Virus record (IMG/VR): IMGVR_UViG_3300032820_000008
Coordinates: 1 to 59,448 of that record
Strand: one strand, 5' to 3'
Length of the DNA: 59,448 bases
Source of the DNA: a virus
Lineage: Duplodnaviria > Caudoviricetes
The notes under the pieces: generated by a model
The model's database searches: none
Told to the model about the DNA's origin: nothing
What the model saw: only the letters and a program-made list of their open reading frames with translations
Shown: positions 18,501 through 43,200 of the stretch, piece by piece
Position numbering within the stretch: the first letter of the stretch is position 1
Layout of the letters: every line of letters starts with the position of its first letter
Made by a program: the position numbers and the translations under genes

Positions 18501-21500
18501 CGGTCTCGTGTATAAGCGTTTTATTGAGAGGGTCACGAAGAGCAGACAAGCAGTAAATGCTAAAGGAAAAACTGACCTACAGAAGGGATTAGAGGCGGAT
18601 GCTTCCATTGTTGCTTCAAACGAGCTATCGGCAGCGGGATTAGACGAGGGAATAGGTACATCCGTAGAAGATGACGCTATAGATGCTGCGGGAAGGGCAG
18701 CGGCCCAAGATATAGCACGCGAAGGCGGTGAACCCGCTCTCACGGAAGAAGTGCTACAACAGAATTTTAAAGAATATGTTTACCGTACATTTGATCCTGA
18801 TCTTGCTGGTCTTGCTAACCGAGCATTCGTCGTAGGAGGCACGAGATCGGGCAAAGATACCCGCTTAACGGGTGAAGCTTTAGAGCAACTAACTAATGCC
18901 GCAGAAGCGTTTTATAACGAAGTCATTAAAATAGCCGAGGCGATGCTACCGGCGAAAGTTGCCTATTCAATTGCTCCCGAAACGGTAACTACGCCAACAA
19001 GCCCTGAAGTAATGAGCGCCATACTGTCCACGCGAATGGGGCAGAATATTAACGACACCGTTACGATTGCCAGAAACCCTCAAGAACTTGGCCTAACTCA
19101 ATTAGAACCTACTGCAAAAGGCGTTATTTTAGATAAACGGGTATACCTATTCACCGATAACATAGAAGCAGGTAATGAATTAGGTGTGTTTCTGCATGAA
19201 GTAGGCTCCCATGTGGGGATGAAAGATTATGTGGGAAAAGGTAACTACAATCGATTAATCAATACCATTAAGCGGTTTGCTAGTAAAACAGACGGAAGTT
19301 TTGAAAGTCGTCTTGCTAAACGAGCTATGGACAGGCTTAAATTAGCAGAAGATGTATTAGATAAAAACGTATTACCTAATGATGAACTACTAGCTTACTT
19401 TATTGAAGAAGCCGTCGATGCGGGAGTTGATCCTGTAGAAGCTGGGAAAGAGAAATCTCCGATAGGGAATATCTTTAGGTCAATAATGGCATTTTTTAAG
19501 GCGGGGTGGCGTAAGCTTTTTCGGTATCCCTACAACAACCCAACGGCACAAGAAGTGGTAGACATGGCGTATGGGGCTGCTGGCTTAGTAATCCGTAACC
19601 CAACGGCTATGCTAAGTAATATAGATAAGCAATTACTATATTCTATCGCTACTACTGCGGGTAATGAATTTGTAGAGACCCAATCTAAAATCAATGTAAA
19701 TACACAAGATCGTGATTTTCTTGCCACAATTAATGATATAGGTCTAACAGGGCTAGGAAAAACAACGTTAGAAAGGGCTACAAACTATAAAAAACATGTC
19801 TATAACTTTATGGGATTACTTCAACTTGCTGATCAGGTGTCTAAGAAATACCCGGAGCTTGCGGGAGTTATACGCAAAATTGAAGCTATTGTTAACACGC
19901 GGAAACAGATAATAGATGATAAACGTAGGGAAGTAGAAGATTTCTCTCTCCACCTAGATACGGTACTAAATAGTAAAGAGTACAAACCTTACAGAGAGGC
20001 TTTCGAGGATGTTGTTCACGACTCAACTATTGACGAAATAGACCTACGAAACAATACAGACCGAACCGATCCAAACAGAGTAGTTCGTAATACTGATTTA
20101 TATAAACGTTTTGCACAACTACCTGCCCCCCTGCAAGAGGTTTATATTCGGCTATCAAATAAATATGAAAATTTTGCCACAGAATATATAGCAACTTTAG
20201 AAAAGTTCCTAGGCGAAGCAGGTATAGCTGACGCGCATAAAAATATGCTTGATCTCTTAAAGGGACAGATAACTCCATATTTCCCGCTACTTAGGCATAA
20301 CGGAAATTATTGGCTAGACTTTAGAGTAACTAATCTAAGGGATGCGTCTGGTGCGCTCACTATGGACGACACCGGAGCAGCCTTTGTCAAACGTGTAACT
20401 CTATCGTATGAATCCCCCGAACAACGGCTTGCTGCGAAACAAATACTCGAAAAAGATCCTGATGTAATCAAAGGCAGCATACTTACTTATGCCCGTCCCA
20501 ACGATGCTTCAATAAGTAGTGAAGTACCTAATCCAGAGATAGAAAAACTTTTGGGCGCACTAACTGGGGATGCGGATTTACCGGCCTCAACTAAAAAATT
20601 AATAGTCGATAACTATCTTAATATGTTTCCTGATTCTTCTCTAAAGAAACAGTTTAAAAAACGTAAAAAGATAGCGGGGTTTAGAAAAGATTCAGTACGT
20701 AATTTTGCGCAGATAGGCCATCAGATGGCAAATCAGCTAGCTTCAATGCAGCAATCAAAAGAATTACGTGATGCTTATGCGGCGCTTGACGAAATTCAAA
20801 GAACATCTGCCGAACCCGAAGGCTACATAAGGAGCGACGATGATTCGGGGGCAACTAAAGCCGACCCTAACGTTGCCCAAATTATACAAAGCGTAAAAGA
20901 CAAAAGGGAGTTTTTAGAAAACCCGCAACCTAAGTCATGGGCTGCGACACTTTCATGGGGGAGCTATGTGTGGTACATCCTGGGCAATTTATCTTCCGCA
21001 TTTGTAAACCTATCACAGATAGCGATTGGATATTTTCATATGGTTGGGCGATATGGTTTGGTAGATACCCATAAAGCTTTTATGAACGCAATGAAAATGT
21101 ACATGAACGGGGGGCGGGATAACAATACTAAATTTGAAATACCGAAAGCACTTGGTTTCCTAACTGGTTTTAATACATCGCTTGCAGATAAAACTTTTGG
21201 GGCGAATAAAAATTTATCCCCTGAGTATAGAGCGTTGTACGACGCTGGACTCGCTCGCGGCGCTGTCCGAAGGACTACAGGTCAAGAATTAGTCGATATG
21301 CAAAAAGGCCGAACCGGAAAGCTTTCTCAGCGGGTTCACAAATACACTTATGCATTAAGTTGGTATTTCCAAAATACTGAGCGGGCCAACCGGGAAATTG
21401 CTTTGATTGCGGCTTACGATTTAGCTAGAAAAAAAGGAACGGCAGAAATAAGAGCGGGGAGTAGTGAGTACGGGGCCGAAAAGGGAGCTACAGATAAAAA

Positions 21501-22581
21501 ATCGGCTATTAACTTTGCAGTTGATTTTGTAGACACCATAAACGGCCCTGCGATTGCAGAAACTGGGCCTACACATTTCCAAGATGGTATTGGGAAAGTA
21601 ATGGGTACTTTTAAACGGTTTGCTTTTTCACAAGTTTATCTGCAATACCGCCTAGCAAGAGATGCCGTGTCCCACGTAGATCCTAAAGAACGAGGTATCG
21701 CGTTTAAACAGATTGCGGCGATCATGGTACCGGCTTATACACTGGCAGGTATGAAGGGCTTACCTTTTTATGGCGCAGTGGATGCAATTGCAAGTATGGC
21801 GATGAGCGACTTCTTATTGGGAGATGAGGACGAACCGTGGGAGTTTGATACTTCCCTTAACGCTAAAATGGGGGATTTTGCCTTTTTTGGATTATTCAAT
21901 GCGGTATTGGGAACTGATCTAGCAAGTCGGACAGGTTTTGGGAATATGTTATTTCCTCATGATAACCCCTATAAACGAGAACAGTTAGAGTGGTTGTATT
22001 ACCCACTAGCTTTTGCGGGGCCAGCAGTAGGGATTGTAGGGAGTCTGTATGATGGTATAGAGCTGTTTTCTGAAGGGCAGCTTCTACGGGGGATGGAAAA
22101 AATCACCCCATCCTTCATGAACAACCCGTTGCAAGCAGCTAGGTTTAGTGATCTCCCTATGCTTGGTGAAGGAGGCGCACTAACTCGGGATGGTATGACT
22201 CCTATAATGGACCCAGTGCCTACGGGGTCTATACTGATGAATATGTTTGGTTTCTCGCCTGCGGAACTAACTAAACGATACAGAGCAAATTCATCTGCAA
22301 AACAATACCAAAGAGCAGTATTGGAACGCCGTCGCGGTTTATTAAATAAACTGTATGGCGCTAAAGTAACCGGAGACTATAAAGAAGAAGGAAAGGTGCG
22401 GAAAGAAATAGCTAGATTTAATAACAGCCGCTTTGGACGCGCCATGCCTATAAACGCTTCTAGCGAAATAAAAAGCTTCAAAGCAAAGCTTAAACGGAGC
22501 GAAGAATATATTAATGGGCTATACATAAATGAGAAACTACGAGATCCTATATTAGAAGACGTAGGGATAGAACTAAGTTGA
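15562..22581 (+). CDS. Very large ejection / polyvalent protein (2339 aa) with a zincin-like HExxxH motif and a PLxRFG-like segment
   Basis: FLHEVGSHVG plus a downstream 'DELLAY' Glu; 'PYFPLLRHNG'; last and largest gene of the ejection cluster. Confidence 0.65.
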   Translation: MPKYKVTAPTGQAYTVDAPEGATGQDAIAYLSAQLGGVGAGAGAAISDSERYENILKRIEQERYAEGNALTQGLSRGVDIAQMGYGSFLEGVGKGLGLEGLEEYGGEVVAEQEEELAAKAPYATRLKDVREAEGVLDTAGELASFTGSALGESLPQMGTTIGGSLAGAAAGARMGAVAGIPGTVIGGIAGGLLANVPFFYGMNREAQKEAVADGTKIKLNEGAAFLASIPQAIMDLVADRFLFGLGSRAGVNVEKLTRQGGLFTRGVKGAALGVTAEVPTEVGQQVIERFQAGRPIDSPEAIEEYLEVGAAAGLVGSSIRTVTNIVGGDPEAKRLADEAKAKSALGLDGGAAAAAAAPTGVSLAADEETTRLATIKAAEEELRVAKAREDALNKVINDSEATASDRHAANLEQKAAEAERVKAETTLAAAEDAQGFAQFIQQEPELQNVGQQKRRELFDEYKTVNKARASYESGDNTLQDLYTGFGIKIGKNIDGEIKLADITPEMATTIVNDFTKRSEKLVEKGAEKDRVLIRELEQLDKSDLFRTIKDKVPERDRVPLSKKDDSITAEIDRVEARRLKEAQKRKADTAAAPAATPVVATTTEQLSRLDKIPDFKPTEAFLPPSSEQRREVTEVLSGRSLQFFEEIEDRIGGGIAPRTIFAEARKKLTKKEDVAAFGVAEKAIKKLWPGARGTVAPPVVTTPVVDKAKKQLTPEEFMAQQDAAKAAADKAAADKAAADKAAADKAADAAAETVVTKPVGRTRDYEVVGDSPEAIVLNKDIEEARKAWSEVKEAVDAYIYDHGPELEKARFAEMEKVARGEATTDTALADLMAKEESARDRIKEAENASNEAARARRAAAAGTAAPEAAAAEAGAIPESLVVPAALRPRKDGKESAYDAVTKGENPLTLEDLDKETPTGANKKFTGTQLVKFWGNKKKRVKQLADRAPAVEEAAQLAGKRVAADTKAAIYDDQKIEEITNGLVYKRFIERVTKSRQAVNAKGKTDLQKGLEADASIVASNELSAAGLDEGIGTSVEDDAIDAAGRAAAQDIAREGGEPALTEEVLQQNFKEYVYRTFDPDLAGLANRAFVVGGTRSGKDTRLTGEALEQLTNAAEAFYNEVIKIAEAMLPAKVAYSIAPETVTTPTSPEVMSAILSTRMGQNINDTVTIARNPQELGLTQLEPTAKGVILDKRVYLFTDNIEAGNELGVFLHEVGSHVGMKDYVGKGNYNRLINTIKRFASKTDGSFESRLAKRAMDRLKLAEDVLDKNVLPNDELLAYFIEEAVDAGVDPVEAGKEKSPIGNIFRSIMAFFKAGWRKLFRYPYNNPTAQEVVDMAYGAAGLVIRNPTAMLSNIDKQLLYSIATTAGNEFVETQSKINVNTQDRDFLATINDIGLTGLGKTTLERATNYKKHVYNFMGLLQLADQVSKKYPELAGVIRKIEAIVNTRKQIIDDKRREVEDFSLHLDTVLNSKEYKPYREAFEDVVHDSTIDEIDLRNNTDRTDPNRVVRNTDLYKRFAQLPAPLQEVYIRLSNKYENFATEYIATLEKFLGEAGIADAHKNMLDLLKGQITPYFPLLRHNGNYWLDFRVTNLRDASGALTMDDTGAAFVKRVTLSYESPEQRLAAKQILEKDPDVIKGSILTYARPNDASISSEVPNPEIEKLLGALTGDADLPASTKKLIVDNYLNMFPDSSLKKQFKKRKKIAGFRKDSVRNFAQIGHQMANQLASMQQSKELRDAYAALDEIQRTSAEPEGYIRSDDDSGATKADPNVAQIIQSVKDKREFLENPQPKSWAATLSWGSYVWYILGNLSSAFVNLSQIAIGYFHMVGRYGLVDTHKAFMNAMKMYMNGGRDNNTKFEIPKALGFLTGFNTSLADKTFGANKNLSPEYRALYDAGLARGAVRRTTGQELVDMQKGRTGKLSQRVHKYTYALSWYFQNTERANREIALIAAYDLARKKGTAEIRAGSSEYGAEKGATDKKSAINFAVDFVDTINGPAIAETGPTHFQDGIGKVMGTFKRFAFSQVYLQYRLARDAVSHVDPKERGIAFKQIAAIMVPAYTLAGMKGLPFYGAVDAIASMAMSDFLLGDEDEPWEFDTSLNAKMGDFAFFGLFNAVLGTDLASRTGFGNMLFPHDNPYKREQLEWLYYPLAFAGPAVGIVGSLYDGIELFSEGQLLRGMEKITPSFMNNPLQAARFSDLPMLGEGGALTRDGMTPIMDPVPTGSILMNMFGFSPAELTKRYRANSSAKQYQRAVLERRRGLLNKLYGAKVTGDYKEEGKVRKEIARFNNSRFGRAMPINASSEIKSFKAKLKRSEEYINGLYINEKLRDPILEDVGIELS

Positions 22582-29937: not shown

Positions 29938-30600
29938 TTATCCTCTCCCATTATATTCACAGTCTAAAACCGGACAGAATTTACGACAAGTGAAGTTAGA
30001 AGTAGGATTCCAAGTATCTGCTTCAAAAGACATATTTAATCTATCTAATTCAGTGTCCCAACTGGCCCAATAATTTTCCTCGTCTTTCCTGTAAAAATTA
30101 GCTTTTTTAAATTCTTCTGAAACCAAAAATAGTAACCCTCCTTTAACACATTCAACCTCTGGAAAATGACTAAAAATAGCAAGAGATAGTATTTCCAGTT
30201 GTTTAGTATCTGCATATTTTGCGGACTTGCCGGTTTTGTAATCTACTAACAAGGCGTTTTTATTATCTACAGAAATAAAATCAGCCACGCCTCGCCACCA
30301 TGCTTCCTTATCCCAAAAATCGCAGGGTTCCAAATCAGCAGTTAGAGCCATCTTATGCTCAAAAAATTTATCCCCGGCTGCACCCAACAAAATATCTATA
30401 TGAGGCTGAATAAACTTATGTTCCTCTGGTATCTCTTTGTTATCGCGCCCGTATTCCTCGGCAACTTGGTGGACTTCTTTACCGTATGTTAGATGACGCG
30501 ATTCCGGCTCTACTATATCTTTTAATATACGTAAGCGATAAAACTTACGGGCACATTGCGTAAACAAAGATAGCGACGAATAGGACCAACAAAAATTCAT
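29938..30600 (-). CDS. Cas4-like PD-(D/E)XK exonuclease
   Basis: WSYSSL..F.QC, G..D...VDYKTGK, QL, and C-terminal CxxC-x4-C (Fe-S staple). Confidence 0.85.
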   Translation of the reverse strand: MNFCWSYSSLSLFTQCARKFYRLRILKDIVEPESRHLTYGKEVHQVAEEYGRDNKEIPEEHKFIQPHIDILLGAAGDKFFEHKMALTADLEPCDFWDKEAWWRGVADFISVDNKNALLVDYKTGKSAKYADTKQLEILSLAIFSHFPEVECVKGGLLFLVSEEFKKANFYRKDEENYWASWDTELDRLNMSFEADTWNPTSNFTCRKFCPVLDCEYNGRG

Positions 30601-31100
30601 TCTGGCGGGACTCCCCCCGTAAGCCACTCGAAGAACAATTCCCGCTCTTCCCCGTCTTGGGTGTAGGTCAGCGGGGTCAGATTTACCTCTCCCAGTGGAC
30701 CGTCAATCAGTGCATACAGGCTTCCATCATTATTGCGAACTGCGTACAACACCGACTCCCGACTGAGCATAACCTCGAACGGACTACGATCCAGCCCAGC
30801 ACGTCGGCCTTTCACCTTGAAAAATTCTTTACGCATAATTAATTTCCTTTCCTGTAGAATTCTTGCCCATGCCTGTTTAATTATTTTGTTACCCTCTCCA
30901 TAATCTTCTCTTTCGTCAACCAACGTTTGGATAATTCTAACTGCTTTACTCCAAGGCATTTGCGTTTCTGAGTTTTGTTTGTATTCTTTTTCTATTTCTG
31001 CTATCGAGAAATCCTCCCACCGTTTTTCTATTCGGTCTTGTTCTTCTTCCCTAACGGTGTAATCTTTTCTTAACCAAGGCATTTTTGAAGTATTAATCAT
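30597..31100 (-). CDS. Hypothetical protein
   Basis: ORF with overlapping start/stop junctions on both sides. Confidence 0.6.
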   Translation of the reverse strand: MINTSKMPWLRKDYTVREEEQDRIEKRWEDFSIAEIEKEYKQNSETQMPWSKAVRIIQTLVDEREDYGEGNKIIKQAWARILQERKLIMRKEFFKVKGRRAGLDRSPFEVMLSRESVLYAVRNNDGSLYALIDGPLGEVNLTPLTYTQDGEERELFFEWLTGGVPPE

Positions 31101-32929: not shown

Positions 32930-33435
32930 TGGTTTTCTTCGCCAAAGCAATCTTTAAGAATTTCTTCTAATTCCTGCGTTGGGTCATCTCCATAATGGGG
33001 GTGTATTGGCTCATCTTCATACCCCGGATACCCTTTTAAATGACCTTGTAACTGACCGCAATATTCATCCATTTCAGGATCAGGATGATCTCTATAGTCT
33101 TCTTCTTTTTTTGAAGTATATCCCCCACCCACTAATGTGCTATAAATTATTTTTCTAGTGGCTTCCCGTTTATGATTGTACAGAGCAGCCTTTATTGCTA
33201 TTCGCTCTATCGGATTAAAAGTACCCGCTTCTAGGATATTTACCCATTTCTCAAAATCGTCCGGTGGGGGCGCTTCTGAATTAAAATCCCATGTTCGTGC
33301 GATGTCGTCTTTTAGCTTGTCGTCAACACAACGCTGTATTATCTCTGCTTTAGTATCCATGTTCCCCAGAATTATTTTTGTGTCTGAGCAACAAAAGGGA
33401 TACAACAGCTTAAAAATTAATCGAGATACCGTCAT
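32920..33435 (-). CDS. Hypothetical protein
   Basis: 171-aa ORF with AAGGGG RBS, in the replication operon. Confidence 0.6.
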   Translation of the reverse strand: MTVSRLIFKLLYPFCCSDTKIILGNMDTKAEIIQRCVDDKLKDDIARTWDFNSEAPPPDDFEKWVNILEAGTFNPIERIAIKAALYNHKREATRKIIYSTLVGGGYTSKKEEDYRDHPDPEMDEYCGQLQGHLKGYPGYEDEPIHPHYGDDPTQELEEILKDCFGEENQCK

Positions 33436-33484
33436 TATAATTCCCCTTTATGTTTTTGTTGTCGTCGCCCCCGCTCACAATTTC

Positions 33485-33790
33485 TTACCAGTTCCCTTCC
33501 CCCGTCTGTAGAAGCTCTCTCAAATCTTGCTTACTCATTGCTGGTTCTGAGTAAATAATAGCGAGACCGCCTGCATCTTTTATAGCTTGGAGTTCTCTTT
33601 CCTGTAGGGCAGTTGTTTTTCCAGAACCAGCTTTACACTCGATGCCAATGAATTGCCCATCAAGACATGCAACTACATCGGGAATCCCGCTGCGACCATA
33701 GCCACCTGTAGCAGGATAAAAATAATAAGCGTTCAATGCTCTAAGTACAGCAACTACATTTCCCTTAACTTTCTTTTCTGGAGTAGTCAT
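33485..33790 (-). CDS. VRR-NUC family nuclease (Holliday-junction resolvase-like)
   Basis: E..V...GIPD...FIGIECKA...TALQ motif. Confidence 0.85.
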   Translation of the reverse strand: MTTPEKKVKGNVVAVLRALNAYYFYPATGGYGRSGIPDVVACLDGQFIGIECKAGSGKTTALQERELQAIKDAGGLAIIYSEPAMSKQDLRELLQTGEGNW

Positions 33791-33975
33791 CGTGAGTAGG
33801 GCTTTCCAATCTTTATGCGTATCATGTTACCTGACGCCCACACTTTAGAAGTTTCTAAGCTTTGAAAAATTAAGGGGAAAACTAAGAAACACCAGATTGG
33901 ATTTTCACGATACAGCCTCGGCATCGCCGGAATATATGCGTCACCCCACCATATTCTCTCCTGTTCATGGAACAT
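33787..33975 (-). CDS. Hypothetical small protein
   Basis: ORF coupled by ATGA overlap to the VRR-NUC gene. Confidence 0.45.
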   Translation of the reverse strand: MFHEQERIWWGDAYIPAMPRLYRENPIWCFLVFPLIFQSLETSKVWASGNMIRIKIGKPYSR

Positions 33976-34099
33976 AATTTAGTACCCCTGTCCACCAGCC
34001 AAGGTAATACGCTATACCTAATACGACAGCAATACCTACTGTAATCGCCAAGACTTCAACGCCTGTTATCAAGATGGGTGTTTGGGGAGGTTTTTTCAT
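33965..34099 (-). CDS. Small single-TM protein (44 aa); absent from ORF track
   Basis: MKKPPQTPILITGVEVLAITVGIAVVLGIAYYLGWWTGVLNYVP; starts 2 nt after array 1 and overlaps the next start codon. Confidence 0.5.
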   Translation of the reverse strand: MKKPPQTPILITGVEVLAITVGIAVVLGIAYYLGWWTGVLNYVP

Positions 34100-34101
34100 A
34101 A

Positions 34102-34542
34102 ACGCTCGCTCTCTCTATTTGGTTCTCTCGCTAATGATGGCTCGCTCCGGCCCTGTGGTTCTCTCAACAAAAATGGCTCGCTCTCGCTCCTTGGTTCTCT
34201 CAACAAAAATGGCTCGCTCGCGCTGCGTGGTTCTCTCAACGCGCTTGGCTCGCTCCCTATACCTGGTTCTCTCAAGAGCCGTGGCTCGCTCGCGTTTCCT
34301 GGTTCTCTCCACGTCAATGGCTCGCTCGCTAATTTTGGTTCTCTCTACGACGCTGGCTCGCTTTCCTTTTCTGGTTCTCTCAACTGCCTTGGCTCGCTCG
34401 CTAATTTTGGTTCTCTCAAGAGCCGTGGCTCGCTCTTGGTTTGTGGTTCTCTCACTTTAACTGGCTCGCTCTTGGATTGTGGTTCTCTCTAATTAAGTGG
34501 CTCGCTCAAGAGCCTTAGTTCTCTCTGACGTGATGGCTCTTA
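34102..34542 (-). ncRNA. TIGR-like guide-RNA array 1 (stand-alone): 12 x 36-nt units GAGCGAGCCA-N8-GAGAGAACCA-N8
   Basis: TGGCTCGCTC and TGGTTCTCTC alternate every 18 nt on the + strand with variable 8-mers between; exact 36-nt period; same repeats as the array next to the Nop-domain gene. Confidence 0.9.
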
Positions 34543-34547
34543 TACAG

Positions 34548-34576
34548 AGTATACCAAAGAGAAATTAAATCCTCAA
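34548..34576 (-). promoter_or_regulatory. Sigma70 promoter of array 1: TTGAGG-N17-TATACT with TG extended -10
   Basis: cctcaa at 34571-34576 and agtata at 34548-34553; predicted start near 34541 coincides with the first (truncated) repeat. Confidence 0.75.
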
Positions 34577-34596
34577 CGCTTACTAATAGTAGAGCA

Positions 34597-34620
34597 TAAA
34601 AAACCCCGCCGGAGCGGGGT
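34597..34620 (-). terminator. Rho-independent terminator
   Basis: ACCCCGC-CGGA-GCGGGGT hairpin with a U-tract on the - strand. Confidence 0.75.
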
Positions 34621-34950
34621 AAAACGTCAAGGAGTAAACGTTAACCAATATCGTAGAGGGTAATGTTCGGCATGGGGACAACGCCGAGTATTACTAATAC
34701 CGGTCACGCGAAAGTGTATCACGAACCTCTATCGGCCGAACTAAAATATCTCGTATATATTCTGTAGTACCCACAGCTAAGATTTCACTGACAGAAATCA
34801 CAAAAAAGGCTATTAAAATTTCAATCTGTCACGGGTGAAAACCCTGTCCGAATAGTTAAAATCCCGTTTATCCCCCCTACCATCCCCCTTACTTAACCTG
34901 AGATCGTCGCTTAGAACGCAACTACGGCGGTCGAATTTTCTTGCAAACAT

Positions 34951-34977
34951 AAAAAAACCCCGCCGAAGCAGGGTTTT
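34951..34977 (-). terminator. Rho-independent terminator ending the early operon
   Basis: aaaaaaaccccgccgaagcagggtttt hairpin plus U-tract. Confidence 0.7.
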
Positions 34978-35025
34978 AATAAATTAGAGGCTAAACTCTG
35001 TGACATTTTGTCACAGAGTTTAGGG

Positions 35026-35226
35026 TTAGTTATCTCTGCGTTCGGTTAGCTTTTTTAACCAAATCTTCACCCGCGTCTTGAAGCCCATCTTCAAGTCTTT
35101 GTAATCCCGCATACTTGCAGGGGGATGTTGCGTTTCGTCCACAGTAAATGACGTTAGATTCTCGCGAATGCGTTCCATGCGTACTTCGCTTGGAGTTATC
35201 GTATGTAGTGTTTGTTTACATGTCAT
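35026..35226 (-). CDS. Hypothetical small protein
   Basis: AAGGAG RBS; 66 aa. Confidence 0.6.
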   Translation of the reverse strand: MTCKQTLHTITPSEVRMERIRENLTSFTVDETQHPPASMRDYKDLKMGFKTRVKIWLKKLTERRDN

Positions 35227-35241
35227 TCTATTACTCCTTCT

Positions 35242-36444
35242 TTAGTATTCCACATTGTCATCAAGAAAATAAAACACCTGACCGTCTTGGCCTCCCTTAA
35301 GTAGGGCATCGTAAGTCGCTGGCTTTTCATACCGTCCAAGCCCTACATTCGGAATGTAATTTAATACAGGGTCATGCGGACCTAAGTCAGCATATGCACC
35401 CATATCACCGTCACTTTGCAAACCAATATTTAAGACAGCAATTTTTTCACTAGCACTTGCGTTCTCATTTATAAAGCTGTCCAGATTTGGGAAGTATGAA
35501 CGCTCAAATTTTGTAGGCCAATCACTATAGAAAGTCACTACATCAGTGGTGAGGTCATGACATACCACGCGCTTTACACTGTCTTTAAAAATATTAAAGA
35601 ATCTATCGTGTACCTCGTATGGTTTTTTAAGGGCAGCTATGGCCTCACTTTCCTTCCTTATAAAGGTAGCCATAAAATCCTTATCAAATATAAACTCCGG
35701 TAAAATAGATTCCGATGTAGCGGGATCATATTTAGAAGTGTCAATGTGATCAAAGAATATAGTAATTGCGTCCCTATACTTCCGTGTAAAGTTGCTTATG
35801 CTAGAACGCATAGCCATTTTTGTCGTCCCTAAATGACGGTCATCAGCAGGTAAGTTACCAGATAAAACAGTGCTAAAAATCGAATCGATTGCAGAAAGTA
35901 TGCGTTTTCCCACGCCTTTCCCATACCATTTATGACATTGATAAGTTAGGGAAGTGAGATTTTTTACACTTATCATATTCGTAGAATCGGAGAAATACCC
36001 TCCAAGTCCATTGTTAATTTGTAGTTGTGACCTTGCCCTCCTTCTAACTGCTTTAGACGTAATAGCAATAACGATAGAATCGCGTTTGCCACCGTGCGCA
36101 CAACCGGCAGAAACACATTCAGGATGCTGTGAATGATGCAACGCAGAGATATCAAATATGCTGACGATTCCCAGATAGCTCCCCGTAACCGTATCGTATA
36201 GTTGTAACCCATGTATGTACTCGTCGTCGTGGAAAATGAATTGGGAATCTGCCCAATCTAACACGGTGGCATCCGACATCGAATGTGACAGCTCCCCGTA
36301 AAAAGCTTTCCCACGTACAAACCCCGTAACACTTCGGGGGTCATCACCCCGCTTTGTTACTACTTCTTTAACACACCTAATCACATATTCCATGCGTGGA
36401 TCTATCGCTAAGTTTTCTGGATTTTTTATAATAATGTCTGACAT
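35242..36444 (-). CDS. Hypothetical protein (400 aa) between the two arrays
   Basis: Strong TAAGGAG RBS; no motif recognised. Confidence 0.75.
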   Translation of the reverse strand: MSDIIIKNPENLAIDPRMEYVIRCVKEVVTKRGDDPRSVTGFVRGKAFYGELSHSMSDATVLDWADSQFIFHDDEYIHGLQLYDTVTGSYLGIVSIFDISALHHSQHPECVSAGCAHGGKRDSIVIAITSKAVRRRARSQLQINNGLGGYFSDSTNMISVKNLTSLTYQCHKWYGKGVGKRILSAIDSIFSTVLSGNLPADDRHLGTTKMAMRSSISNFTRKYRDAITIFFDHIDTSKYDPATSESILPEFIFDKDFMATFIRKESEAIAALKKPYEVHDRFFNIFKDSVKRVVCHDLTTDVVTFYSDWPTKFERSYFPNLDSFINENASASEKIAVLNIGLQSDGDMGAYADLGPHDPVLNYIPNVGLGRYEKPATYDALLKGGQDGQVFYFLDDNVEY

Positions 36445-36447
36445 AAT

Positions 36448-36515
36448 TTACTCCTTAAGAGCTGAACTCCGTGACAAAATGTCACAGAGTTCAGCGGGTT
36501 ATTGTCGTTTAACTA
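36448..36515. repeat. Direct repeat (RBS plus palindrome) bounding the Tas/array cassette, copy 1
   Basis: Near-identical to 37786-37852. Confidence 0.85.
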
Positions 36516-36516
36516 A

Positions 36517-36960
36517 TGGCTCGCTCATTGGCGATGGTTCTCTCTCAATAATTGGCTCGCTCTGCCTTTTTGGTTCTCTCATCCGTCATTGGCTCGCTCT
36601 GAAGGTTTGATTCTTTCGGTGCTTGTGGCTCGCTCTGACCCTATGGTTCTCTCATTCGAACTGGCTCGCTCCTTTCTTTTGGTTCTCTCATGCCCCGTGG
36701 CTCGCTCCGAAACGTTGGTTCTCTCGTGCCCCATGGCTCGCTCACGCTGTTTGGTTCTCTCTTCCGTCATTGGCTCGCTCTAGCCCTTTGGTTCTCTCAT
36801 CCGAAATGGCTCGCTCTAACCCTTTGGTTCTCTCAGGCGGTATGGCTCGCTCCGGCTTGTTGGTTCTCTCTGGCGGTATGGCTCGCTCTGAAACGTTGGT
36901 TCTCTCGTGTCAATTGGCTCGCTTACTAGCAATGGTTCTCTCTCGATCATTGGCTCGCTC
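36517..36960 (-). ncRNA. TIGR-like guide-RNA array 2: 12 units (ten of 36 nt, two of 37 nt) plus a terminal repeat
   Basis: 13 copies of TGGCTCGCTY alternating with 12 copies of TGGTTCTCTC (one variant), with variable 8-9 nt spacers; begins 4 nt after the stop of the Nop-domain gene. Confidence 0.92.
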
Positions 36961-36964
36961 TAAG

Positions 36965-37780
36965 TTAGAACGGTGGCTCGATTTTATGAGCATGGCCCTC
37001 ATGCACCATGACGTATGGTGCCGGTGGCAATTTATCAAACTCATGCCGATACCAGACCTCATGAAGGTGCGATAGGAAAATCTTGACAGCATAGCGTTTG
37101 GCTCGCGCATGAATATGTGCTGGAGGCAACTTGCCTATGATGTAGGCTTTGTAGGCATCCGTTTTCTTACCTATATTATATTTTTCCAGCTTCGCTTTCG
37201 CTTGCTCAGAAAAAAGACCCTCGTCGTTTTTCTTTAACTCAATCTCCTTGCGTGTCTTATATAACGCACCATAGAAGTCGTCGTCGTGGTTGCTCACCTT
37301 CACAAAGCTCTCGCCCAACTTCCAGCACAATGTCTTTAACTCCGCATTGTGTGGACGCTTCTTTCCCTTGTCCCATTTCGCAGTGGGGTCGAGACCGGCA
37401 AATCGCCAGATAGCTCCAGCAGTAGGAGCTTGTTCTATATCTATATGTGCAATCAGACCAGCAGCTATAACTGGGCCAATGCCAACGACCGTGCGAACGC
37501 GCCGACCAATGGGGTGAGCATCGGAGTACACGTCCAACGAAGCACGTACACTTTTCTCCAAAATGTCTGCCTGAGTAGACAGCCAGCCTAATACTTCATG
37601 TGGTTCTTCTTTCATTGACCTAATTTGATTATTAGAACGAATACGATTGCCCTGCATTTGGTAATACGCATCGACTAAAAACCGTGCTTCAGCATCAGAT
37701 AAAGTTCTGGATGCAACACGCAAATCACGGGACAGTTGTGTGACCGACATAGTGATTTCAGTGGTTTCAGTAATATTCAT
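36965..37780 (-). CDS. tasA: Tas protein (Nop / IS110-C-terminal-like RNA-binding domain); no nuclease domain seen, TasA-like
   Basis: Coiled coil (LVDAYYQMQGNRIRSNNQ), helix-hairpin 'VGIGPVIAAGLIAHI', 'IWRFAGLDP', 'HNAELKTLCW', 'HARAKRYAVKIFLSHL'; no N-terminal DEDD RuvC domain and no IS110 catalytic SG motif; adjacent 36-nt dual-repeat array. Confidence 0.85.
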   Translation of the reverse strand: MNITETTEITMSVTQLSRDLRVASRTLSDAEARFLVDAYYQMQGNRIRSNNQIRSMKEEPHEVLGWLSTQADILEKSVRASLDVYSDAHPIGRRVRTVVGIGPVIAAGLIAHIDIEQAPTAGAIWRFAGLDPTAKWDKGKKRPHNAELKTLCWKLGESFVKVSNHDDDFYGALYKTRKEIELKKNDEGLFSEQAKAKLEKYNIGKKTDAYKAYIIGKLPPAHIHARAKRYAVKIFLSHLHEVWYRHEFDKLPPAPYVMVHEGHAHKIEPPF

Positions 37781-37785
37781 TGAAC

Positions 37786-37852
37786 TTACTCCTTAAGGCT
37801 GAACTCTGTGACAAAATGTCACAGAGTTCAGCGGGTTATTATCATGTAACTA
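37786..37852. repeat. Direct repeat (RBS plus palindrome) bounding the Tas/array cassette, copy 2
   Basis: Near-identical to 36448-36515; contains the perfect inverted repeat GCTGAACTCTGTGACA-AAA-TGTCACAGAGTTCAGC. Confidence 0.85.
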
Positions 37853-38104
37853 TAGTTCGCCAAATTCGCCGTATTGATTTTCATCGGCCAACTCTGCCAT
37901 CGGTTCCTCATGCTTACTGTCAAATAGGTCCAGTTGGTTTTTGGAACCCTTTTTGCCATGCTGCACAAGTAGGTAGCTAATGACTTCGTTGTACGATAAA
38001 CGCGAGCCTAGATGTTTCTGTAGTTGTACGTTCACTTCATCTAGTCCCGTCTTAACTTCAGCCGACACCGCGATAGCTTCGCGGCTTCTCTTCTTCGTGG
38101 TCAT
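37850..38104 (-). CDS. Small putative DNA-binding protein (ribbon-helix-helix-like)
   Basis: 'AIAVSAEVKTGLDEV...LSYNEVISYLL' fits a beta-helix-helix pattern. Confidence 0.45.
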   Translation of the reverse strand: MTTKKRSREAIAVSAEVKTGLDEVNVQLQKHLGSRLSYNEVISYLLVQHGKKGSKNQLDLFDSKHEEPMAELADENQYGEFGEL

Positions 38105-38114
38105 AGTTATCTCC

Positions 38115-39542
38115 TCACTTAATTGTGATTAAACTTCCGAACGTCGGTACGAATTCAGAATTCCCACCGCGCTCAATTACAGCCCATAGAACTGGGATAC
38201 CAAGTTTCTCCCAATCCCCCTCGCTATCCCCATAAAAATACCCATCAGTAAATATAATTACCGCATTAATATCTTGGTATTCGCCGGTTAGTATTTTGTC
38301 CTCGACCTGTCTAAAAACACAGCTTGGATCTGTGCCACCACCACCTATCGGCTTGGTCGAATCTTCAAGATTTGCATACGACATTTCGTCGTAGGTTTCC
38401 TCTCCTTGAACACTATAATCCCAATAAACGAGATGAACTTTTTCAGGCATGACATCCATAGCTATTGTCTTAAATTCCGATAGGAACTTATCAATATCAG
38501 AGAACACCGAACCGGACGTATCCATTGCCACAACCATCTGTCCAGCTTTTTCGTCAAGCATGGATGGCATATAAATATCCGAACCGATAAGTCGTCGGTT
38601 ATATTTACGCCAGGTTGTCTGACCACCACCCTTCACTTGTTGTTTTATAAACTCAGCAAGGATTTCCTGCCACGGTGTTTCGACTGCCAGTAATTTAACA
38701 ACAGCTTTAGCAATGCCATCGCTGCCGGTCCCTGCTACCTCCGCAGCTTGGCGAATAGCACGGTCCAACTCGTTGTTGTCCTTCTCTAATTCTTCGGCAG
38801 TTTTTTCCTCGTCGTAGTTGTGGTCGTCGTGCTGGTCCTCGGCACGTTTCCTAATCTTCTCGGAGTATTTTGCTGGTCCTTTTTTATTACTATGATGAAA
38901 CTTTTCTTCGTCCTCCTCTGGTTCTTCTGTTTCATTATCATCGTCATCATTTGGAGGAATAGGATATCCACCAGGAGGGCATGGTCCGTTTTTGCCTGGT
39001 GGTACTGGAGGAGGAGTAACACCTTTTTTACCCTTCTTAGGAACAGTCCCTTGCTTTTCCTCATTCTCAAGCAAGAGAATATCCACCACCTGCTTAGAAT
39101 CCATGTTTATAAATTGGTCATCTAACAGGCACGCTGGCATACCTTTTTTCGGTCCCTCCTTATATCGTGGTATCCGTAAGAACTTTTCGTCCGGGTCCAA
39201 ATCCCTAAGCATGGGATTAATTACGTAGTCATTCGCCATGTTTGTTAGCAACGCATACTTTTCGCGTAACTTTTTCCAGATGAACAGATGTTTGTAGACC
39301 TTGTGCATACACTCATGGAGAACAACAAACATTAACTCCTTGTCATCCAATGTCTGCACAAACGCTGGGTTGTAGTAGGTGTTGATACCATCGGTCGCAG
39401 CCGTTGGTACTTCATCGGTGAATATAGTTTCACCGTGCAGAAGCATACTCCCGAAAAATCTAAGTTTCGGTATCTGCATACAGCGAACGTGTGTACGTTC
39501 GACGCGCTGTTGCGCGGTGTATTCTGGATTTTGTAATCCCAT
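38115..39542 (-). CDS. Metallopeptidase-VWA protein (DUF2201-like)
   Basis: PTAATDG, LHECMH (HExxH), ANDYVIN; MIDAS DTSGS, GGGTD, FTDG. Confidence 0.88.
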   Translation of the reverse strand: MGLQNPEYTAQQRVERTHVRCMQIPKLRFFGSMLLHGETIFTDEVPTAATDGINTYYNPAFVQTLDDKELMFVVLHECMHKVYKHLFIWKKLREKYALLTNMANDYVINPMLRDLDPDEKFLRIPRYKEGPKKGMPACLLDDQFINMDSKQVVDILLLENEEKQGTVPKKGKKGVTPPPVPPGKNGPCPPGGYPIPPNDDDDNETEEPEEDEEKFHHSNKKGPAKYSEKIRKRAEDQHDDHNYDEEKTAEELEKDNNELDRAIRQAAEVAGTGSDGIAKAVVKLLAVETPWQEILAEFIKQQVKGGGQTTWRKYNRRLIGSDIYMPSMLDEKAGQMVVAMDTSGSVFSDIDKFLSEFKTIAMDVMPEKVHLVYWDYSVQGEETYDEMSYANLEDSTKPIGGGGTDPSCVFRQVEDKILTGEYQDINAVIIFTDGYFYGDSEGDWEKLGIPVLWAVIERGGNSEFVPTFGSLITIK

Positions 39543-39557
39543 GATTCTTACTCCTTC

Positions 39558-40430
39558 TTAGAAACTAAATTTGTCCATGATGTCATCGACCTTCTCTTTG
39601 AGAATTTCGCGTGCATCACTGAACTGTTTTATGTCGTCAATATCAGCGGTCTGCAAAACCCTATGCAATTCGAGTCGTGCATTCTCCATCTCTTGGTCCC
39701 CGGTAAGATTGAACGCTTTCATCAAATCGACCAGCTTTTCGGCGTTGGTCAGCATTGACTCGTGGTAGCGTTTTTGCGCCCCATCTTTAGCCTCTACCAT
39801 ATTCTTAGATATAGTTTGGAGAACTTTGTGGAAGCGCCCCCATACATCTTTCATTGAAGTTTCAAGACGTTCTTTGGATGCTGTCTCATACTGCTCGTCG
39901 AGTTCCTTCCGAGCCTCGTTGCCTATATCTATTCTAAAATCACCAGACTCTGCGACAGGTGCGTAGACGCACTTAAACTTAAATTTCCTCATGACCTCCT
40001 CATCATGCTCAGGGTAGTCAAACTCTCTCCACAGGTTGCCCAGTTTCGCCTTGGCTTCTATGCACAAATCCGGCAGCTTTATCTCAAACTGGGTAACGAG
40101 TTCCAAGAACTCGTCGCGTGCTTCGCCTATCTCGGTCTGATGCTCAATCAGTTTGGCGTTGGGTAACAGCCGTGTCCCGCTGTCATTCCACGGCAGCGTT
40201 AACTGCATGTTCCGGTTCCGTATCATGGACGCCTTTTTGATTATCGTATGCAGCGTTTCGCTACCCGCATAGATATCCTTGGTAACTTTCGCTATGCGTT
40301 TGTTAGCGGTGTAGTTATCCTCATTAACCTTGTCGGATTTTTCCTTATCAATTTTCCTCCCTGTCGGTACACTAATACTTAGGTCCACAAGAACGGCTGA
40401 ACTGCTGATACTTCTGCTTTCAAAATTCAT
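39558..40430 (-). CDS. DUF3150-like helical protein
   Basis: 'TLPW...G.RLLP', 'DYP', 'NLTGD..ME'; typical partner of AAA/DUF2201 gene pairs. Confidence 0.55.
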   Translation of the reverse strand: MNFESRSISSSAVLVDLSISVPTGRKIDKEKSDKVNEDNYTANKRIAKVTKDIYAGSETLHTIIKKASMIRNRNMQLTLPWNDSGTRLLPNAKLIEHQTEIGEARDEFLELVTQFEIKLPDLCIEAKAKLGNLWREFDYPEHDEEVMRKFKFKCVYAPVAESGDFRIDIGNEARKELDEQYETASKERLETSMKDVWGRFHKVLQTISKNMVEAKDGAQKRYHESMLTNAEKLVDLMKAFNLTGDQEMENARLELHRVLQTADIDDIKQFSDAREILKEKVDDIMDKFSF

Positions 40431-40490
40431 GGTATTTATTCCTTAGTTTAATTAAACGATGAACTGCGTGACAAAATGTCACAGAGTTCG

Positions 40491-41618
40491 CTACATTCCG
40501 AACAGATGTTTGACCCCGGTCGCCCATTTCCCAAACTCGCTAGTAGATTCCATCACCTCTTTTAGGTCTTCTTTTTCGCGAGCATTAAGCACAAACAGAG
40601 CCTGAGTTTCGTTAGAAAATTCCGGCTCTCCGCCTGCATCTTTACGGGTTATATATTTGAACCAAGCACTAACATCCGAGCGGGTTTTCACCCACTGCAC
40701 TGCCGATAACATTACTAAACACACAGCAGCAGGGTCAGTCGGTACCAACGCTGTCTCGGGGGTATTGCGGATTTCATCGGGCGATGGAATCTGGTTCTCC
40801 AACGAGATAAACGTAGCGAGTTGCTGCGCGCCTTCGCGACCTATCGCACCTTCCAGACAAGCCATCATCTGCCTGTCGGAAATCTTGTTGTCTTTGTAAT
40901 CCCACACAATATGGCTTGCTGTTTCTAAAGAACGAGGAGAGACATAAGACAACCCAGTGCCGTTGTGAGTTTTTGGGTTGTAGATGTACGGGTTGGTGTC
41001 ACCGTCCGCCAAGTCGCGGTACGACTGCATGACCTGAGTCTCGCGTTTTACCCACGCCATCACCACCGGATGGACGTTATTATGTACCGCAAAATTCTTG
41101 ATCCACTCGTCGGCACTTGGCTTGCCTACGAATAATCGGACTTCCCGATTGACGGTATGGCCTTTCATCATGTCGCCCACGCCATCGGTCGTGAGATTAC
41201 CTGTTGATATAACTACAGAATCAGGATGTAACGTGATAGCCCCGATGCGTCGTGGTCGTGTAAGTAGTGGGTGGAGAATAGCTTGGAGTGCCGGAGCACC
41301 CTTGGAATATTCATCAAGCCAGATGCAGACGGGAACACCGAGATGCAGACCCCAATGCTCGGATGGATATAATTGGACAGTCTTGGTTTCGTGGTTGGGT
41401 ATCGGGATTCCGATATCGGATATGTCGGTACTCGGTACGTCCATATAAATGAATGGCATATTCAGTTTCTTGGCTATCTCGCTGCCAATATAAGTTTTAC
41501 CTATTCCGGGTTCGCCCATTAGATGGAAGGTAACCTTACCGCGACTCGCGACAATGCAGTCTATTACATCTTCTAAAGTTGAAGGTTTGGTTGATACAGA
41601 TAATGTAGATTCACTCAT
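40491..41618 (-). CDS. MoxR-like AAA+ ATPase
   Basis: GEPGIGKT, WLDE, STGN, NR finger, SPRS sensor. Confidence 0.88.
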   Translation of the reverse strand: MSESTLSVSTKPSTLEDVIDCIVASRGKVTFHLMGEPGIGKTYIGSEIAKKLNMPFIYMDVPSTDISDIGIPIPNHETKTVQLYPSEHWGLHLGVPVCIWLDEYSKGAPALQAILHPLLTRPRRIGAITLHPDSVVISTGNLTTDGVGDMMKGHTVNREVRLFVGKPSADEWIKNFAVHNNVHPVVMAWVKRETQVMQSYRDLADGDTNPYIYNPKTHNGTGLSYVSPRSLETASHIVWDYKDNKISDRQMMACLEGAIGREGAQQLATFISLENQIPSPDEIRNTPETALVPTDPAAVCLVMLSAVQWVKTRSDVSAWFKYITRKDAGGEPEFSNETQALFVLNAREKEDLKEVMESTSEFGKWATGVKHLFGM

Positions 41619-41623
41619 GGTAT

Positions 41624-42145
41624 TTATTCCTCTGGTTTAGTGTCGGTTATGGGGGGTGTGTAAGCGTACTTGGCAATTATGTTGCCAATTACTGTGCATG
41701 TGTAAGAGTGATGTGTGTCTAGTTCTGAAAGGTATTTTTGCACCGTCGCACGTAGTGCTTGTACTGTGCGTGCGTGCTGTCTCTCGTAGTTATCTATGGC
41801 CGCGAGCGTTAGCTCCTCCACGGCTAATCCATCGATAATTTCATCCATTGCCTTGGCTGCTTTGGCACTGCTTTTGTATGTGTCAGCCAAGTTAGGGCGA
41901 TGTATTACGGTGCCGAAAATGTCAAATATTGCATAGCGGAAGCCGCGAGCGGAGCCGGACATATTTTTCGCTACAGATTCGACTAGGCCAAAGATAAGTC
42001 CGCCGAACGCGATTCTAGTTTGTAAGATTCGAGACTTGTGATACCTGAGCGTATCGTCGGATACGTAGTGAGTCCGGTCACGTAGATTCGCTTGGGCATC
42101 CCATTTCGGATTGCTTGATTCATGCTTGTAACACGTTATATCCAT
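41624..42145 (-). CDS. Hypothetical early protein
   Basis: ATG at 42145 with GGAG RBS; preceded by the palindrome. Confidence 0.65.
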   Translation of the reverse strand: MDITCYKHESSNPKWDAQANLRDRTHYVSDDTLRYHKSRILQTRIAFGGLIFGLVESVAKNMSGSARGFRYAIFDIFGTVIHRPNLADTYKSSAKAAKAMDEIIDGLAVEELTLAAIDNYERQHARTVQALRATVQKYLSELDTHHSYTCTVIGNIIAKYAYTPPITDTKPEE

Positions 42146-42221
42146 GGTTTTAATTACTCCGTTTAGTGCTGAACTGTGTGACAAAATGTCACGGAGTTCG
42201 GGGTTAATTTCATGTTAGTGG

Positions 42222-42407
42222 TTAGTAAACGTCGGCGTAGTATTTATAGACTACGACTGCATCGGTGATGCGGATTGGACGGAAGGCGTAACGTTCAATT
42301 CTAAACGAGCGCATCGAAGTCGGCGGCATCGCGAAGTGCGACAGTGGTTTGATGTGTATTACATTATGGCGGACCCACTGTTTACGTTTTTGGTGGTATG
42401 TAGTCAT
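42222..42407 (-). CDS. Hypothetical small early protein
   Basis: ATG at 42407 with GGAG RBS; preceded by the palindrome; shares a 'PP.SMR' motif with 35026-35226. Confidence 0.55.
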   Translation of the reverse strand: MTTYHQKRKQWVRHNVIHIKPLSHFAMPPTSMRSFRIERYAFRPIRITDAVVVYKYYADVY

Positions 42408-42532
42408 ATTGTCTCCAGAATTGTGTGACAAAATGTCACGTTATTTACCTGCTAATTAATGTTTTAAAATATGTAGGTGGCTAACCTTACGAGGAAGCCC
42501 GCTGGTTTTTTTAAACGTGGTTTGAAAAAACC

Positions 42533-42561
42533 ATTATAGCACGATTACTTATGAATGTCAA
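42533..42561 (-). promoter_or_regulatory. Consensus sigma70 promoter TTGACA-N17-TATAAT (extended -10) driving the AAA/VWA/Tas operon
   Basis: tgtcaa at 42556-42561, attata at 42533-42538, TG upstream of the -10. Confidence 0.85.
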
Positions 42562-42599
42562 GTAAAAACAACTATCCACAGTGGGATGCTGTGAGACCT

Positions 42600-43200
42600 T
42601 ATTACACACTATTTATACTAGGAAATAAACAATGTGACCTAACCGACAATGTTAAGTCGTTGAAAAGTAAGTTTTGTTCCTATTGTGACTAATGTCGGGA
42701 AGTGTATACACCCATGTGAGAATGGGGAGAAAAGTTTATTTTTTTAGTCACAATAGGAACTTTGTGTGCAATGTTCTCTCTCTCTATAAATAATCATAGT
42801 TTCATACGACCCCCCTTTCTATCTTCTACATAAGGCTAAAGGCCTTCGCTCTTTAGTTTTCCCAGAAGTACTAAAAACCCAGTCACATTAGGAACAAAAG
42901 GAACAAAGCTTTAAAATCAACAGGTTAATAATGTGATTTTAGTCACAGTTGCACTGCACCAAAATCACATTATAAAAACAACTTCGTTTGACCTGGAATT
43001 CAGTTTCTGCTATTAATGCCTGAGCATTAATAGCAGAAACCTTGCTGCTTTTTGGGAACTGGTTTGGCATAGCAAACCTTGTGACATTCTGTCACAGAGT
43101 TCGAGGTGAACTTCGTGACGAAAACCAGCGAATCTTGTGACATTTTGTCACAGAGTTTGTCCTGTTTTGTCACAGAGTTTGCAAGGTCCGCATAGTTCAC
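42600..43200. other. Non-coding repeat-rich region, putative replication origin
   Basis: Several inverted repeats, AGTCACAWTAGGAAC iteron-like motifs, an IHF-like site, AT-rich, no ORFs. Confidence 0.5.

Follow-up and report, generated by a model that had tools for sequence, protein, structure and literature searches.

In the 59,448-nucleotide stretch of DNA analyzed here (hereafter the window), which covers positions 1 to 59,448 of the IMG/VR virus record IMGVR_UViG_3300032820_000008 (Duplodnaviria; Caudoviricetes), we identified a locus that is very probably a dual-repeat TIGR-TasA system, i.e., a nuclease-free RNA-guided DNA binder. The locus comprises tasA (36965-37780, minus strand), encoding a 271-aa solo-Nop Tas protein, and two TIGR arrays on the same strand, array 1 at 36517-36960 and array 2 at 34102-34539. 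It displays every sequence-testable defining feature of dual-repeat TIGR-TasA systems except the typical terminator after the array. The TIGR-Tas family was described in 2025 with ~20,000 tas loci (Faure et al., 2025) and TasA is its commonest effector (PMC12045711). A dual-repeat TIGR array is defined by two alternating repeats of 8-12 nt separated by short spacers, in units of ~36 nt that lie next to the tas gene and in the same orientation (PMC12045711).

The tasA gene has AAGGAG 8 nt before its ATG and ends in a TAA stop codon. A first reading of the letters alone (the original prediction) had singled out this minus-strand open reading frame (ORF) as resembling the C-terminal half of IS110 transposases and Nop proteins, and both the frame and the motifs quoted from it are present. 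The protein is laid out as a coiled-coil hairpin (residues ~19-80) followed by a Nop domain and a C-terminal loop carrying Y255 and H262. The only Pfam family matched is PF02371, the IS110 C-terminal family (residues 93-135, E = 1.4e-5), and PHROG 4285, which bears the label "transposase," matches TasA over its full length (E = 6.6e-49, profile positions 6-272 of 277). When PDB chains were searched by sequence, TasH (21kl_A, 1.2e-10) and TasR (9mty_A, 3.9e-10) were matched far better than IS621 (0.31). Relatives are abundant, with 6445 of 7144 candidates (E up to 0.001) being of similar length. No HNH or RuvC nuclease domain was detected in the 271 residues by Pfam, in an AlphaFold2 model or in structural alignments. 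Furthermore, the WDKG of TasA aligns opposite the YESG of IS621, which places a Lys at the position of the IS621 Ser, a residue that we take to be catalytic. Thus the earlier statement that the protein lacks a RuvC/DEDD domain, an HNH motif and the IS110 SG holds, and the N-terminus is instead helical.

The AlphaFold2 model, built on 52 relatives (predicted local distance difference test score, pLDDT, 89; predicted template-modeling score, pTM, 0.85), begins with three long helices (residues 1-87). Foldseek placed TasH and TasR chains at all of ranks 1-10 (E 1.7e-7 to 2.5e-6, TMq 0.56-0.65), with the bridge-RNA recombinases IS621 and ISCro4 at ~2e-3. VIA-align, which is independent of Foldseek, gave Z 19.7 for TasH 21kl_A (213 residues aligned, root-mean-square deviation, rmsd, 3.5), Z 18.8 for TasR 9mty_B (193 aligned, rmsd 2.8) and Z 13.2 for ISCro4; archaeal Nop5p (1nt2_B) aligned over model residues 25-270 with Z 7.3, a range common for helical proteins (143 aligned, rmsd 3.8). 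The structural alignments start past the nuclease domains of TasH and TasR, at chain residues 66 and 110. In the search against Tas, Nop and IS110 proteins that had been suggested for this ORF, solved TasH and TasR therefore come out best by both sequence and fold, and IS110 recombinases far behind. We conclude that this protein belongs to the Tas-type Nop proteins and has no nuclease domain. A model with two copies paired symmetrically via residues 19-80, with a score of 0.58 against 0.00 for the best of three controls, at least 71% contact agreement between runs and a partner pLDDT of at least 81. Among proteins solved as one-chain pairs, 20 of 30 attained the homodimer mark, as did 1 of 23 solved as single chains, and the pass may reflect only likeness to Tas dimers that are already solved.

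Y255 and H262 align with Y289 and H296 of SpTasH (28% identity), and H262 is invariant in 52/52 aligned relatives. In SpTasH these two residues form the metal-independent pre-tigRNA processing pair of dual-repeat systems (PMC13421893; Xu et al. preprint 10.64898/2026.09.09.750476). Judged from the alignment, the C-terminal Tyr/His processing pair of dual-repeat Tas proteins is kept in the window TasA.

Array 1 consists of 13 edge repeats GAGCGAGCCA alternating with 12 loop repeats GAGAGAACCA. Its first repeat begins at 36960, 4 nt past the tasA stop codon, and its last ends at 36517, so the position, start and 12-unit count in the original prediction were right. The uniform 8-nt spacers and 36-nt units it described need slight amendment: 22 of the 24 spacers are 8 nt long, and in units 6 and 11 the A spacer measures 9 nt, giving two units of 37 nt, while Tandem Repeats Finder reports a 36-nt period. 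One edge repeat reads AAGCGAGCCA (A for G at its start) and one loop repeat has two changes. What had been overlooked is array 2, which has its own promoter-like site and 12 units with the same repeats; its first edge repeat is truncated at the 5' end, and its degenerate last edge repeat abuts the ATG of orf44 (33965-34099, minus strand), the gene for a small hydrophobic 44-aa protein and the first gene after the array. With two 12-unit arrays the locus therefore holds 24 guide units. A repeat scan with both 10-mers (up to two mismatches) found clusters at 18-nt steps on the minus strand only in the two array regions. The 10-nt blocks are constant in letters, whereas no position of the 8-nt blocks is constant. 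In both repeats a variable base is followed by GAG at the start, and both end with CCA; the literal "UG" start of TasR arrays is absent from them. There is no palindromy of the A and B halves.

Several smaller observations concern the repeats themselves. The final codons of tasA (36965-36985), which encode a conserved ...IEPP motif, match the edge repeat at 8 of 10 positions, and in two relatives of ~90% identity (L038:1792 and L039:1087) the repeat chain begins within the coding sequence at the IEPP point. In array 2, spacer B of unit 1 is complementary to 7 of 8 bases of the truncated first edge repeat (34507-34543), which could allow the transcript to fold back at its start. In L038 and L039 the first unit resembles this one in its spacer and shares its variant loop repeat.

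Arrays accompany the gene in relatives. A periodic signal of 35-38 nt was found near the gene in 29 of 33 IMG/VR loci with a TasA homologue, although one of these signals (L031:8329-8662) is an unrelated 12-nt tandem repeat; that locus has a short TIGR-like chain elsewhere (5866-5948). The arrays of L146 (Latescibacterota) were too degenerate for analysis. We compiled 59 array consensus rows from loci L002-L115, all on the tasA strand. The edge repeat GAGCGAGCC[A/G] is near-constant over these rows and the middle of the loop repeat is variable. In 52 of the 59 the two repeats have the same 3' end (43 CCA/CCA, 8 CCG/CCG and 1 CCT/CCT), with three mixed and four unclear. In dual-repeat TIGR systems, edge and loop repeats have end motifs in common, box D at the 5' end and box C at the 3' end, and their covariation has been ascribed to a symmetric dimer that reads both repeats (Faure et al., PMC12045711). 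Together, the sequence and fold matches, the Tyr/His pair and the arrays beside the gene in relatives bear out the assignment to the TIGR-Tas family that had been proposed.

The closest comparison is SpTIGR-TasH of Salicola phage CGphi29 (NC_020844; 9W03, 9W04, 21KL), which is likewise carried by a phage, its dual-repeat array lying downstream of the gene. Its array has the edge repeat [A/G]AGCGAGCCA, the loop repeat AAGACAACCA and 8 + 8-nt spacers; the window has the identical edge repeat, a loop repeat that departs from this one at 2 of 10 positions, and likewise 16 nt of guide. The two proteins have the same Nop fold and matching Tyr/His pairs, but SpTasH carries an N-terminal HNH nuclease and cuts DNA, whereas the window TasA has no nuclease domain. 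The FpTIGR system of Flavonifractor plautii (PMC12045711) pairs a solo-Nop protein with an alternating edge/loop array, as in the window; it has 18 nt of spacer per guide rather than 16, the likeness being judged from the published description. TasA ribonucleoproteins (RNPs) contain 36-nt RNAs (PMC12045711). MbTasA (Xu et al. 2026 preprint) and PlTasA (Guan et al. 2026 preprint) are likewise nuclease-free Tas proteins, but these have stem-loop guide units and no C-terminal Tyr/His loop, in contrast to the window TasA with its loop and dual repeats. PlTasA was solved as a dimer on tigRNA (Guan et al. 2026 preprint). MbTasA binds target DNA without cleavage and gives reversible RNA-guided repression of a targeted reporter (preprint 10.64898/2026.09.09.750476), so the function of nuclease-less members is not as fully open as the original prediction had held.

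More distant are the IS110 bridge-RNA recombinases (IS621, ISCro4), which have the RNA-binding Nop-like C-terminal domain (PF02371) in common with the window TasA; the latter lacks the N-terminal DEDD/RuvC-like domain, and its guides lie in arrays rather than in one bridge RNA. Archaeal box C/D Nop5 (1NT2) resembles the window TasA in its coiled-coil dimer and Nop domain, but a fibrillarin-binding N-terminal domain was not seen in the latter, and the published Tas targets are DNA, not RNA. Neither fibrillarin nor L7Ae was found among the 37 ORFs of the window scanned against PHROGs, and a Nop5-family Pfam match was also absent.

By analogy with these published systems, a TasA dimer held together by its coiled coils would bind the transcripts of both arrays, and its C-terminal Tyr/His loop would cut in the middle of the edge repeats to yield 24 tigRNAs of 36-37 nt. 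Each RNP would then bind a 16-bp DNA site, in which spacer A would pair to one strand and spacer B to the other strand of the adjoining half-site. An adjacent motif would not be needed and the bound DNA would be left uncut, with binding potentially blocking its transcription or replication.

Several points weigh against a functional dual-repeat TasA system of this kind. We infer RNA processing, RNA binding and DNA binding in the window from published systems, and the published repression is that of the stem-loop-type MbTasA, not of a dual-repeat TasA. Tyr at position 255 is the majority residue, with Phe in 2 of 8 sequences of the SpTasH alignment, and falls outside the columns conserved at 90% or more in the alignment of 52 relatives. 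Published arrays typically end in a hairpin with a T-run (PMC12045711), and the single SpTIGR array has a terminator at its end; by contrast, neither of the two window arrays is directly followed by one, as array 1 has full edge repeats at its two ends and then a palindromic hairpin without a T-run, and array 2 runs directly into orf44. In one study, contigs of two oligo-dT RNA libraries match both arrays and part of tasA with zero differences, but they cover only parts of the stretch, may derive from DNA and show neither strand nor ends. Finally, no target for the 24 guides was found in the phage or in ~2 Mb of related DNA.

The target searches followed the published rule, under which spacers A and B pair with opposite strands in two adjoining half-sites and gaps of at most 2 bp are tolerated; the 8-nt 3' overhangs imply a site made up of spacer A and the reverse complement of spacer B (PMC12045711). 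Both arrangements (A + reverse complement of B; reverse complement of A + B) were searched with gaps of 0-2 nt. None of the 24 guides had a match at ≤1 mismatch in 293 kb of IMG/VR TasA loci. No exact match was found in 1.23 Mb comprising TerL and DNA polymerase neighborhoods of related phages together with bacterial TasA loci, and none in a further 74 kb. Guides pooled from the family (428) gave no exact match in 676 kb of TasA-bearing loci, and their 28 and 20 matches at one mismatch lie within or just above the shuffle ranges (13-27 and 11-26). Close relatives, as far as sampled, do not appear to be the targets of the guides. The G+C fraction of the spacers, 0.46 against ~0.44 for the phage, does not discriminate between targets.

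A first alternative is that TasA regulates the phage's own genes, with guides directed at its own promoters or origin so that the system serves as a timing switch. The position of the system among early and replication genes, and of array 2 in the leader of a replication operon, would suit such a role. However, with the arrays masked, the 59-kb record contains no guide match at ≤1 mismatch, and its matches at two mismatches (3 and 2 in the two strand arrangements) are at the level of 20 shuffles (2.8 and 2.85). Even with the arrays unmasked, the only near-match is that of array 2 unit 1 to its own 5' flank, half of which is trivial. Because the guides match the phage record no better than shuffles do, we regard self-regulation as improbable. 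Since none of them matches the phage itself, DNA from outside it, that of the host or of competing mobile elements, is the more likely target of the TasA system.

A second alternative, to which we assign a marginally smaller but similarly low probability, is that TasA does no more than the targeting and recruits an effector, such as a nuclease, whose gene lies elsewhere, with the result that targets are destroyed. Candidates do lie in the region: a PD-(D/E)XK exonuclease (29938-30627) and a Hjc-like small endonuclease (33485-33790, below the Pfam cut-off), of which the latter has a homologue near tasA in L007 and L019. These genes, however, belong to the replication backbone and are present in relatives without tasA. 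The tasA gene occurs in none of 96 backbone loci (around the polymerase or terminase of related phages), and among 58 TasA loci of at least 5 kb the backbone is common to only two, L007 and L019, where tasA lies between the small endonuclease and the polymerase, unlike in the window. The genes orf84, orf400 and orf66 occur in none of the 58. There is thus no sign of the partner recruited in trans that the original prediction had considered. Faure et al. (PMC12045711) report no clear association of TasA with other proteins apart from occasional ParB-like genes, and a ParB-like gene was not seen in the annotation of the window. Rather than belonging to the backbone, tasA with its array is an accessory cassette of the phage.

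A decayed fragment of an IS110-type transposase lying beside an unrelated tandem repeat, with no RNA-guided function, would account for Pfam naming only the IS110 C-terminal family and for the "transposase" label in PHROGs. Yet the protein is full length relative to PHROG 4285, has thousands of relatives of similar length and a confident model, matches Tas structures far better than IS621, and is accompanied by an array across genomic contexts. It also fails the definition of the IS110 family (a DEDD domain plus a conserved-Ser domain), and no IS110 element ends are present at the locus; we consider this explanation exceedingly improbable. Equally negligible is translation of the arrays as a repeat protein, for although 36 is divisible by 3 and mechanical ORFs of ≤150 aa cross the arrays (mostly antisense), it is excluded because all six frames of both arrays hold stops (3-14 on the transcribed strand, 1-6 on the opposite strand) and two 37-nt units break the frame, with constant 10-nt blocks set against variable 8-nt ones and relatives altering unit number and order; this was one of the outcomes named beforehand as refuting the system.

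With respect to expression, the sole 12/12 consensus sigma70-type promoter in the region (42533-42561, minus strand; TTGACA, 17 nt, TATAAT, with TG) lies 4.75 kb upstream of tasA and is the nearest strong promoter-like site on the tasA strand. No terminator-like site is listed on the minus strand between it and tasA, and such a site, a hairpin with a T-run, first appears at 34954-34977 (minus strand), downstream not only of tasA and array 1 but also of orf400 and orf66. Array 1 is probably co-transcribed with tasA from this upstream operon, going by the sequence features. Expression from an early consensus sigma70 operon, as had been proposed, is therefore plausible insofar as the promoter is there with nothing terminator-like in between, the transcript itself being inferred. 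Array 2 has a promoter-like site directly upstream (34548-34576, minus strand; TTGAGG, 17 nt, TATACT, with TG). It sits in the 5' leader of orf44 and of the genes for the endonuclease and DNA polymerase, and this promoter of its own probably drives its transcription as their leader.

This second array appears to be a variable part of the leader. A sister phage (L151, ~83% nucleotide identity in the flanks) keeps the array-2 promoter, orf44, the endonuclease and the polymerase, and in place of the window's 12 units (34102-34576) it carries a single loop repeat and the remnant of an edge repeat (L151:2040-2140). Because the surroundings are kept around a one-unit remnant, array 2 can be viewed as a variable insert in the operon leader. 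The ~350 bp between two terminator-like hairpins (34603-34977) contain no convincing gene and no Rfam match; part of this segment is kept in the sister phage (L151:1300-2000), and a ~45-nt motif occurs there in three copies.

The tasA gene and array 1 are flanked by near-identical direct repeats of ~65 bp (37781-37849 and 36445-36512), each containing a palindrome and a ribosome-binding site. As the cassette lies between them, these repeats could mediate its gain or loss. The palindromic element has a GTGACA-N-TGTCAC core, and one copy (37804-37826) is located directly upstream of the tasA ribosome-binding site and another (36467-36489) directly after array 1. With five further copies (34996-35018, 40464-40486, 42174-42196, 43077-43099, and 43133-43155), seven occur in 34996-43155, where none is expected by chance. 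The core is invariant in all seven, most lie within a longer AACTC...GAGTT stem, and several stand just 5' of ribosome-binding sites in the minus-strand early block. The palindrome might act as an operator, as a hairpin for RNA processing, or as a promoter or terminator specific to the phage. A virion RNA polymerase of the N4 type reading the hairpin elements was considered and is unsupported. The structural block does include a 2339-aa virion-protein ORF (15562-22581), of which only the C-terminal third matches PHROGs (giant phage proteins) and which has no PDB or Pfam match.

To examine how guides change, we compared the window with two loci whose TasA is 89-91% identical (L036 and L041). 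These have the same repeats and mostly different guides, and the number and order of units differ among relatives. Nevertheless, 5 of the 24 window guides recur in them with ≤1 mismatch over both halves (array 1 units 8 and 10; array 2 units 5, 6, and 12), in changed order and all in the array adjoining tasA. In the window itself, half-guides that are identical or one base apart form 10 pairs, compared with 0.63 expected (maximum 4 in 500 shuffles). Under a strict measure of half-guide reuse (one half at ≤1 mismatch, the other with at least three differences) applied to 28 loci and 399 units, there are 42 pairs versus 3.8 by shuffling, about tenfold over chance, with the proviso that the shuffling null ignores kinship between loci and is rough. 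Neighboring units account for 13 of the 42, and duplicates of whole units across the 28 loci number only 4. Sharing between A and B halves is not enriched (4 versus 2.75), i.e., A halves stay A and B halves stay B. In the searched parts of PMC12045711 we found no mention of half-guide reuse, and how arrays gain spacers is stated to be unknown (Xu et al. preprint 10.64898/2026.09.09.750476). We tentatively raise the possibility that new guides may arise by recombination of half-guides at the repeats, with whole units being traded between phages.

The carrier is an uncultivated marine tailed phage. The 59,448-bp source record, a linear viral contig, has an estimated completeness of 95%, and near-verbatim copies of the stretch occur in marine metagenomes from several studies. 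Structural genes occupy the plus strand, and the minus strand holds a replication/early block encoding a primase-helicase, a helicase, the PD-(D/E)XK exonuclease, DNA polymerase A, a MoxR-like ATPase and a DUF2201 metallopeptidase/VWA protein. The scan of 37 ORFs against PHROGs showed no integrase, no tRNA was detected and no Rfam family reached its gathering score. The genome looks nearly complete and lytic. The closest cultured relatives by TerL are the Pelagibacter phages HTVC027P and HTVC023P, together with phage 023Pt_psg01; at only ~52% identity, the terminase does not identify the host. Megablast of 33000-39000 against the phage collection returned zero matches, and orf400 has no Pfam, PHROG, phage-record or Atlas match. 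The 475-aa protein encoded at 38115-39542 carries the PHROGs label "HNH endonuclease," which looks wrong because its Pfam domains are a DUF2201 metallopeptidase and a VWA-like domain and its gene adjoins that of the MoxR-like ATPase (40491-41618).

Among phage records, tblastn matches to TasA were confined to Salicola and Microcystis phages. Chromosomal homologues of 61-63% identity occur in two cultured bacteria, Acidobacteriaceae bacterium KBS 96 (L117) and Halomonas sp. NO4 (L116), and both repeats of the window recur in KBS 96, in a clean array of six units. With such carriers, guides could be compared with the genome of a known host, where ~0.002 exact 16-mers per guide per 4 Mb are expected by chance.

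The locus contributes little as one more TIGR-TasA, the family being already published (Faure et al., 2025). Its value is that of a clean natural case: a near-complete phage, recurrent in marine metagenomes, with 24 well-defined guides and with repeats that match the sole dual-repeat system whose RNA processing and structure are solved. It is thus a convenient dual-repeat TasA for tests of repression, which has so far been demonstrated for stem-loop TasA only (preprint 10.64898/2026.09.09.750476). For nuclease-free members, the main question is that of their natural targets. If array 2 is indeed the leader of the replication operon, guide processing might trim the mRNA of that operon just before orf44. 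The locus also offers evidence on array evolution, in the form of shared guide modules, reused half-guides and one array spanning 1 to 12 units. If half-guides do recombine at the repeats, this would be a sequence-level clue to the expansion and diversification of arrays lacking adaptation genes, an open problem named by the discoverers of the family.

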